Assembly: GCF_056746865.1 (NCBI RefSeq)
Contig: NZ_CM163382.1
Direction: 5' to 3' (one strand)
DNA length: 64,000 nt
Part shown: piece by piece, positions 17,230 to 17,901 of the stretch
Layout of the letters: each line of letters begins with the position of its first letter
Position numbering within the stretch: the first letter of the stretch is position 1
Made by a program: the position numbers and the translations under genes
The notes under the pieces: generated by a model
The model's database searches: none
Told to the model about the DNA's origin: nothing
The model's input: only the letters and a program-made list of their open reading frames with translations

Positions 17230-17901
17230 TCACCGCTGTGTCACCCCTTCGTAAATCAGGCGTAGCGCGAATACACCAATAATTGCACCAATAACCCGAC
17301 TGGCAACGCGTTGCATACGCCCATAAGCACGACGCACAGCGGGCAAAGAAAACGCCTGACTAAGAAAAACGCGCCAGATAATTGATGCGAGCACAATCCC
17401 CGCTCAGGCCATTAAACGTGCCCATGTTGGTGTTTCGGCATTTAATGTTACTGAGAAAATACTGATAAAAAATAAAACGGTTTGCGGGTTAGAGAGATCG
17501 GTAATTAATCCACGGCGAAAAAAGACATACCAGGGGGCGTTAATCGGTTGTTGTAGTGTGCTCATTTGCGGTGTTGACTGGCGGCGCATGCTGCACCACG
17601 CAAACCATAAGAGATAAGCGCCGCCGACGATTCTGATAAGCGAAAAAATCTCCTCACACTGCGTAATTAGCGTTGCAAGACCAAACAAACCCAACCCGGA
17701 ATAAAATGCATCGCCCAGCGCCACGCCCAGCCCGGTCAGCACCCCTGCGCGTCGACCGGAAGCCAGGCTGGTTTGTACTACCACAAAGAGATTGGCTCCC
17801 GGATTAAAAAAAGTAATCACGAACAGTCCTACGGTCAGGTAAACGGCGTGCAAAGGATCCATAGTGATTTCATCCATAAATAAGTGAACTAACTGCATCA
17901 T
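17230..17901 (-). pseudogene. yahN: LysE-family amino-acid exporter gene with in-frame premature TGA at codon 166
   Basis: ORF track stops at 17404 after ...TPTWARLMA; same frame continues 57 codons (AGIVLASIIWRVFLSQAF...GVTQR) to a stop at 17230; 165+1+57 = 223 codons, the recalled full YahN length. Confidence 0.75.

Follow-up and report, generated by a model that had tools for sequence, protein, structure and literature searches.

The window analysed here is a stretch of 64,000 nucleotides from the Escherichia coli contig NZ_CM163382.1 (assembly GCF_056746865.1), and the locus under study, yahN, lies on its minus strand between yahM and yahO. Translation of the frame running from 17901 to 17230 (672 bp) gives 223 codons and a terminal TGA, interrupted at codon 166 by another TGA (17404..17406, minus strand; tca on the plus strand). 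The ATG-started open reading frame 17901..17404 is closed by this premature stop and encodes 165 amino acids (codons at 17407..17901), comprising hydrophobic segments 1–4 of the predicted exporter. Beyond the premature stop the same frame continues for 57 codons (codons 167–223, 17233..17403; AGIVLASIIWRVFLSQAF...GVTQR), in which the last two hydrophobic segments are cut off (approximately residues 160–189 and 198–222), and it ends with the second TGA. A GTG-started ORF of 54 codons (17230..17394, minus strand) begins within this tail at codon 170, 9 nt past the premature TGA, and its translation would yield a hypothetical re-initiation product. In other E. coli genomes PGAP annotates exactly the same interval, 672 bp between yahM and yahO, as yahN ("LysE family transporter"). 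The preliminary description, which had identified the gene as yahN with a full length of 223 codons and a LysE-family reading frame halted at codon 166, agrees with the ORF listing, the translation and the length of the annotated gene elsewhere.

The comparison with protein family models indicates what the stop removes. When codon 166 is read as Trp, the ancestral frame matches the Pfam LysE model (PF01810) with 202.4 bits against a cut-off of 25.6 and covers model positions 2–193 of 193, so that the frame belongs to this family and the 57-codon tail completes the domain, as expected from the earlier proposal that the tail is hydrophobic and LysE-like. The 165-residue ORF still scores above the cut-off (148.5 bits) but reaches only from position 2 to position 138, hence the domain is incomplete and 55 of the 193 model positions, around 28% of the domain, are absent from its C-terminal end. 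The narrower NCBIfam model TIGR00949 (2A76, RhtB subfamily) is matched by the full frame from end to end (238 bits, cut-off 183.95, positions 1–185 of 185), whereas the truncated ORF falls under the cut-off with 179.1 bits and positions 1–134 of 185. The full YahN frame thus fits the subfamily described by TIGR00949 as "homoserine/threonine efflux transporter", with the E. coli paralogues RhtB, RhtC and LeuE, along its whole length; its matches to the RhtC, LeuE and RhtB equivalog models are weaker and none of them reaches the cut-off, which makes YahN a distinct paralogue. A sequence search for a relative with a solved structure detected none. The hydropathy profile (19-residue Kyte-Doolittle window) has hydrophobic stretches at residues 12–44, 54–79/71–89, 84–105, 160–189 and 198–222, and a weaker one at 135–155 (all approximate). 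This pattern would fit six segments, with the fifth and sixth located past the stop, since the stop falls at the start of the fifth stretch. Hydropathy, Pfam and TIGR00949 therefore all uphold the earlier view that the C-terminal transmembrane segments are missing from the predicted product, and the 165-residue fragment is most likely non-functional.

Alignment of yahN with the alleles of other strains, a check advised in the preliminary description, revealed that codon 166 is ancestrally TGG. The yahN of the window differs from the K-12-type gene at six nucleotides, one of which, in alignment column 498, turns the K-12 TGG into the TGA of the window. The nonsense change is a single C-to-T transition of the plus-strand base 17404 (T here, C in intact alleles), i.e., TGG to TGA on the coding strand. 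The frequency of both alleles was estimated with 55-mers centred on base 17404 and compared by Megablast with 5,426 complete E. coli genomes; as the exact 28-base word required by Megablast always spans the centre of a 55-mer, a match needs the same central base. The TGG 55-mer was found in 4,499 of these genomes and the TGA 55-mer in 112, in every case over 55 of 55 positions. The locus itself has a match in 5,193 of the 5,426 genomes, and the approximately 582 that carry other SNPs nearby fall outside both counts. At the protein level, the full-length counterpart with Trp at codon 166 was found in the protein collection on no fewer than 1,000 contigs. The exact 165-residue product is encoded by 28 contigs and has already been deposited several times, one example being EFJ75725.1 of E. 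coli MS 198-1.

The closest intact relative of the mutated allele was recovered with the 951-bp yahM-yahN-yahO segment in which TGG had been restored. A 100% match to this query was obtained for KK19-02 alone, whose assembly is recorded twice, and the TGA carriers matched it at 99.9%. The sole difference between KK19-02 and the window over 3,563 bp (16025–19587) is base 17404, which in KK19-02 belongs to a TGG codon, and the yahN allele of KK19-02 is accordingly 99.85% identical to that of the window at the nucleotide level (one difference), with a predicted main product of 165 amino acids in the window versus 223 in the intact form. Intact YahN (WP_000983410.1 in K-12-type strains, WP_000983407.1 in KK19-02) is encoded at the same yahM-yahO locus by the same 672-bp frame. 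We considered whether KK19-02 might be a revertant or a sister within the clone of TGA carriers and rejected this, because outside the 16025–19587 block it shows only 95%–98% identity to the window and so represents a separate lineage with the ancestral haplotype. The comparison of haplotypes shows that the one which bears the mutation existed with TGG (Trp) and has been preserved in the unrelated lineage KK19-02. The ancestral state of codon 166 as TGG rests on this otherwise identical haplotype and on the 4,499 genomes, and the K-12-type allele concurs, so that the TGG to TGA change previously suspected as the cause of the truncation is confirmed.

Nine of the TGA carriers were examined more closely. 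They come from Mexico, Italy (two), the USA, Pakistan (two), New Zealand, China and the Galapagos, representing five continents, and their recorded sources include human urine (Mexico), cerebrospinal fluid and a rectal swab (Italy), chicken and black kite (Pakistan), cattle (New Zealand), pig (China) and seawater (Galapagos). In all nine, yahN is identical to that of the window at 672 of 672 bases, and the RefSeq protein accessions of the closest flanking genes, from yahK to prpE, are common to all of them. A 5,477-bp block shows no mismatch to the window in any of the eight carriers in which it could be tested, and four carriers are 99.7%–100% identical to the window over approximately 24 kb when the IS2 element private to the window is set aside. 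One carrier, 118UI, has been typed as ST69, phylogroup D (PMC8900328 Table 2), and another was deposited as "O15:H18 strain ST69"; ST69 is documented in this way for 2 of the 112 carriers, the remainder being placed by sequence identity. The zero divergence in yahN (nine of nine) and in the 5.5-kb block (eight of eight) points to one very recent clone and provides no evidence for a conserved short form of the protein. A TGA shared by other strains in a shorter but conserved protein had been named at the outset as the observation that would speak against a nonsense mutation. The first part of it stands, as there are 112 carriers, and the second does not, given the zero divergence among the carriers examined.

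Two other SNPs were tried as markers of the clade. The yahL SNP at 15958, 1.4 kb away from the nonsense base, occurs in 116 complete genomes, i.e., four beyond the TGA count. It was rejected as a clone marker, as it is also present in NRZ14408, one of these four additional genomes, a strain that differs from the window by around 2% and whose yahN is intact, with TGG. The prpR SNP at 19657 is old and widespread (1,656 genomes) and proved uninformative as a linked marker. Since NRZ14408 shares the linked yahL marker and nevertheless carries TGG, the TGA allele is confined to one tight clone in the complete genomes searched.

The divergent yahN of NRZ14408 also allowed us to ask which form of the protein has been under selection. 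It differs from the yahN of the window at 16 nucleotides, and besides the stop only one of the differences, N121S, alters the protein; the dN/dS ratio for this pair is approximately 0.05. Codons 167–223 contain four synonymous and no non-synonymous differences, which indicates that in divergent lineages the long form is the selected one. The perfect tail in the TGA carriers, on the other hand, reflects the youth of the mutation, as the flanking 5.5 kb is likewise unchanged. Both marks of a pseudogene created by a nonsense mutation, a sense codon in the orthologues and purifying selection on the full frame, were found for yahN. yahN is dispensable, because 233 of the 5,426 complete genomes have no match to the yahN locus and a viable Tn5 insertion in yahN of MG1655 has been reported (PMC11014345). 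The genes yahN and yahM are convergent, with 16 bp between the yahN stop and the end of yahM at 17213; because the transcription unit of yahN contains no further gene behind it, no polar effect of the mutation is expected. Transcription of yahN should also be unaffected, since the upstream yahN-yahO spacer has the same sequence as in the TGG strain KK19-02.

We therefore consider it very probable that yahN, the gene of a dispensable exporter, has recently lost its function or had it severely reduced, and that this state became fixed in one lineage through clonal descent. The mutation, the ancestral codon, the distribution and clonality of the allele, and the truncation of the domain are direct observations, and the course of events that would connect them is as follows. 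The C-to-T change at 17404 would have arisen a single time, not long ago, in a strain ancestral to one clonal lineage of E. coli (ST69, phylogroup D, in the typed cases), and the TGA allele would then have been inherited unchanged by the members of this clone worldwide. Translation would end where hydrophobic segment 5 begins, leaving as the main product a 165-residue fragment without segments 5 and 6, and the dispensable gene of a predicted six-segment LysE/RhtB-type amino-acid exporter would have become a young pseudogene with no secondary decay as yet.

The alternatives concern the reality of the stop and its fate during translation. Assembly errors most often take the form of single-base differences, and the genome collection does not include the genome of the window itself, so that the TGA might have been an error in this one genome with TGG as the true codon. 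The same allele is, however, present in 112 independently sequenced complete genomes, the exact 165-residue product occurs on 28 contigs from several archives, and all nine carriers examined have the same base, which makes a sequencing or assembly error extremely improbable. A more substantial objection is that the allele may be leaky rather than null, with Trp-tRNA(Trp) reading the UGA at a low rate and inserting the ancestral Trp, so that a little wild-type YahN would still be made in a condition-dependent manner. K-12 has an unusually weak RF2 variant, and natural isolates probably read through less; the values measured with K-12 reporters may thus overestimate read-through in strains like the one studied here. 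UGA is the leakiest stop codon of E. coli; RF2 competes for it with Trp-tRNA(Trp), which misreads it, and read-through in a K-12 reporter rose from approximately 2% at 37 °C to 4% at 25 °C and was modulated by cAMP and by the level of tRNA(Trp) (PMC10570021). These figures favour some leakage, as does the context of the stop, which is followed by G and not by the U that suppresses read-through (PMC5289835). The frame past the TGA is fully intact, as a leaky allele would require, but a mutation this young would leave it intact in any case, as can be seen from the flanking 5.5 kb, which is just as free of changes. Moreover, the search for a structure or motif that would promote read-through was negative (z = -0.35 for the fold past the stop, no Rfam match), and read-through of a few percent in an exporter expressed at a low level may be physiologically without effect. 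On balance, a leaky allele of this kind seems unlikely. Bolder variants, a "self-correcting" leaky allele that provides low, heterogeneous YahN dependent on cAMP and temperature, or a loss of the exporter that was itself selected during the emergence of the clone, are to be regarded as speculative and rather improbable.

Two further possibilities assign a role to the sequence beyond the stop. Termination followed by re-initiation across such short distances is known in bacteria, and the in-frame GTG ORF of 54 codons (17394..17230), with a G-rich GGGGA ahead of the GTG, could in principle allow a split gene, in which ribosomes stop at the TGA and restart at codon 170, and the four-segment fragment of 165 residues and the two-segment fragment of 54 residues together form the exporter. 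This general precedent and the layout of the GTG ORF speak for such a mechanism, but the GGGGA is only 3 nt from the GTG, a poor Shine-Dalgarno spacing, PGAP does not call the second ORF, and the whole arrangement is ancestral coding sequence, identical in TGG strains, with nothing shaped for re-initiation. A split gene is accordingly very unlikely. TGA also serves as the selenocysteine codon in E. coli, which brings in recoding of the stop as selenocysteine or through another programmed event. The ancestral codon is nevertheless Trp and the UGA is limited to one young clone. The search for a SECIS-like hairpin in 73 nt from just upstream of the UGA returned no sign of one (z = -0.35; 69 of 200 shuffled sequences fold at least as well), and an Rfam scan gave no family match in or near yahN. 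Of the features of a recoding site, neither a stem-loop beside the UGA nor conservation of the UGA across lineages was found, and the probability of recoding appears negligible.

The preferred reading, a young pseudogene in a single clone, places yahN among familiar cases. The "internal stop" pseudogenes annotated by PGAP in pathogenic E. coli clones have the same signature (one nonsense substitution without additional decay, fixed in one clone, in a dispensable gene), and yahN does not differ from them in kind. The yahN pseudogene is already known, being flagged in the RefSeq annotation of all nine carriers examined, including 118UI, as "pseudo, internal stop". What is added here is that the allele is a marker of one clone with worldwide spread (ST69 in the typed members), that the ancestral haplotype survives elsewhere and that there is no secondary decay. 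In the literature search no paper linking yahN with ST69 was found, and targeted searches gave yahN only in gene lists. ST69 causes infections of the urinary tract and the bloodstream worldwide. The TGA allele could serve as a single-SNP typing marker for this lineage and adds to the genes inactivated in it. If the loss of the exporter affected fitness in urine or in the gut, it would be of modest interest for students of this clone, and if the UGA is misread by tRNA(Trp), each such event would restore the exact wild-type YahN. The case offers no new mechanism and touches no open question.

Several other features of the window deserve mention. The inserted block at approximately 7600–13000, between yahJ and yahK, encodes an ASCH-domain protein and an ABC transporter (an AI-2-type substrate-binding protein, an ATPase and two permeases); the window, the TGA carriers and NRZ14408 have this block, whereas the K-12-type strain and KK19-02 lack it. 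A minus-strand match to the Rfam family RF02278 ("Betaproteobacteria toxic small RNA") at 17074–17124, inside yahM, scores 20.3 bits against a gathering threshold of 50 (E = 0.26) and is almost certainly due to chance. REP/BIME-like palindromic units form two tandem arrays further along, one in the prpB-prpC spacer (21161–21632, a 93-nt unit repeated 5.1 times) and one in the prpE-codB spacer (26277–26993, a 94-nt unit repeated 7.6 times). The copy number of these arrays varies among otherwise identical carriers, e.g., PK8275 versus PKF11, and PGAP sometimes places a "hypothetical protein" over the prpB-prpC array.

The spacer between yahK and yahL contains a complete IS2 of 1,331 bp (14343–15673), with an InsC-type ORF at 14389–14799 and an InsD-type ORF at 14757–15662, bordered by a 5-bp target duplication, GATAG, at 14338–14342 and 15674–15678. 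This copy is absent from 118UI and the other carriers examined, and its junction occurs in none of the 5,426 complete genomes, hence it is private to the strain of the window. The yahL start codon (15740) follows 66 bp after the end of the element, which may change the expression of yahL. Within yahL itself, five SNPs relative to both K-12 and KK19-02 are concentrated in the 200 bp from 15800 to 16000 (15805, 15808, 15850, 15958 and 15997). This cluster is followed by 3.5 kb identical to KK19-02 save for the nonsense base, an arrangement that looks like a recombination boundary inside yahL.
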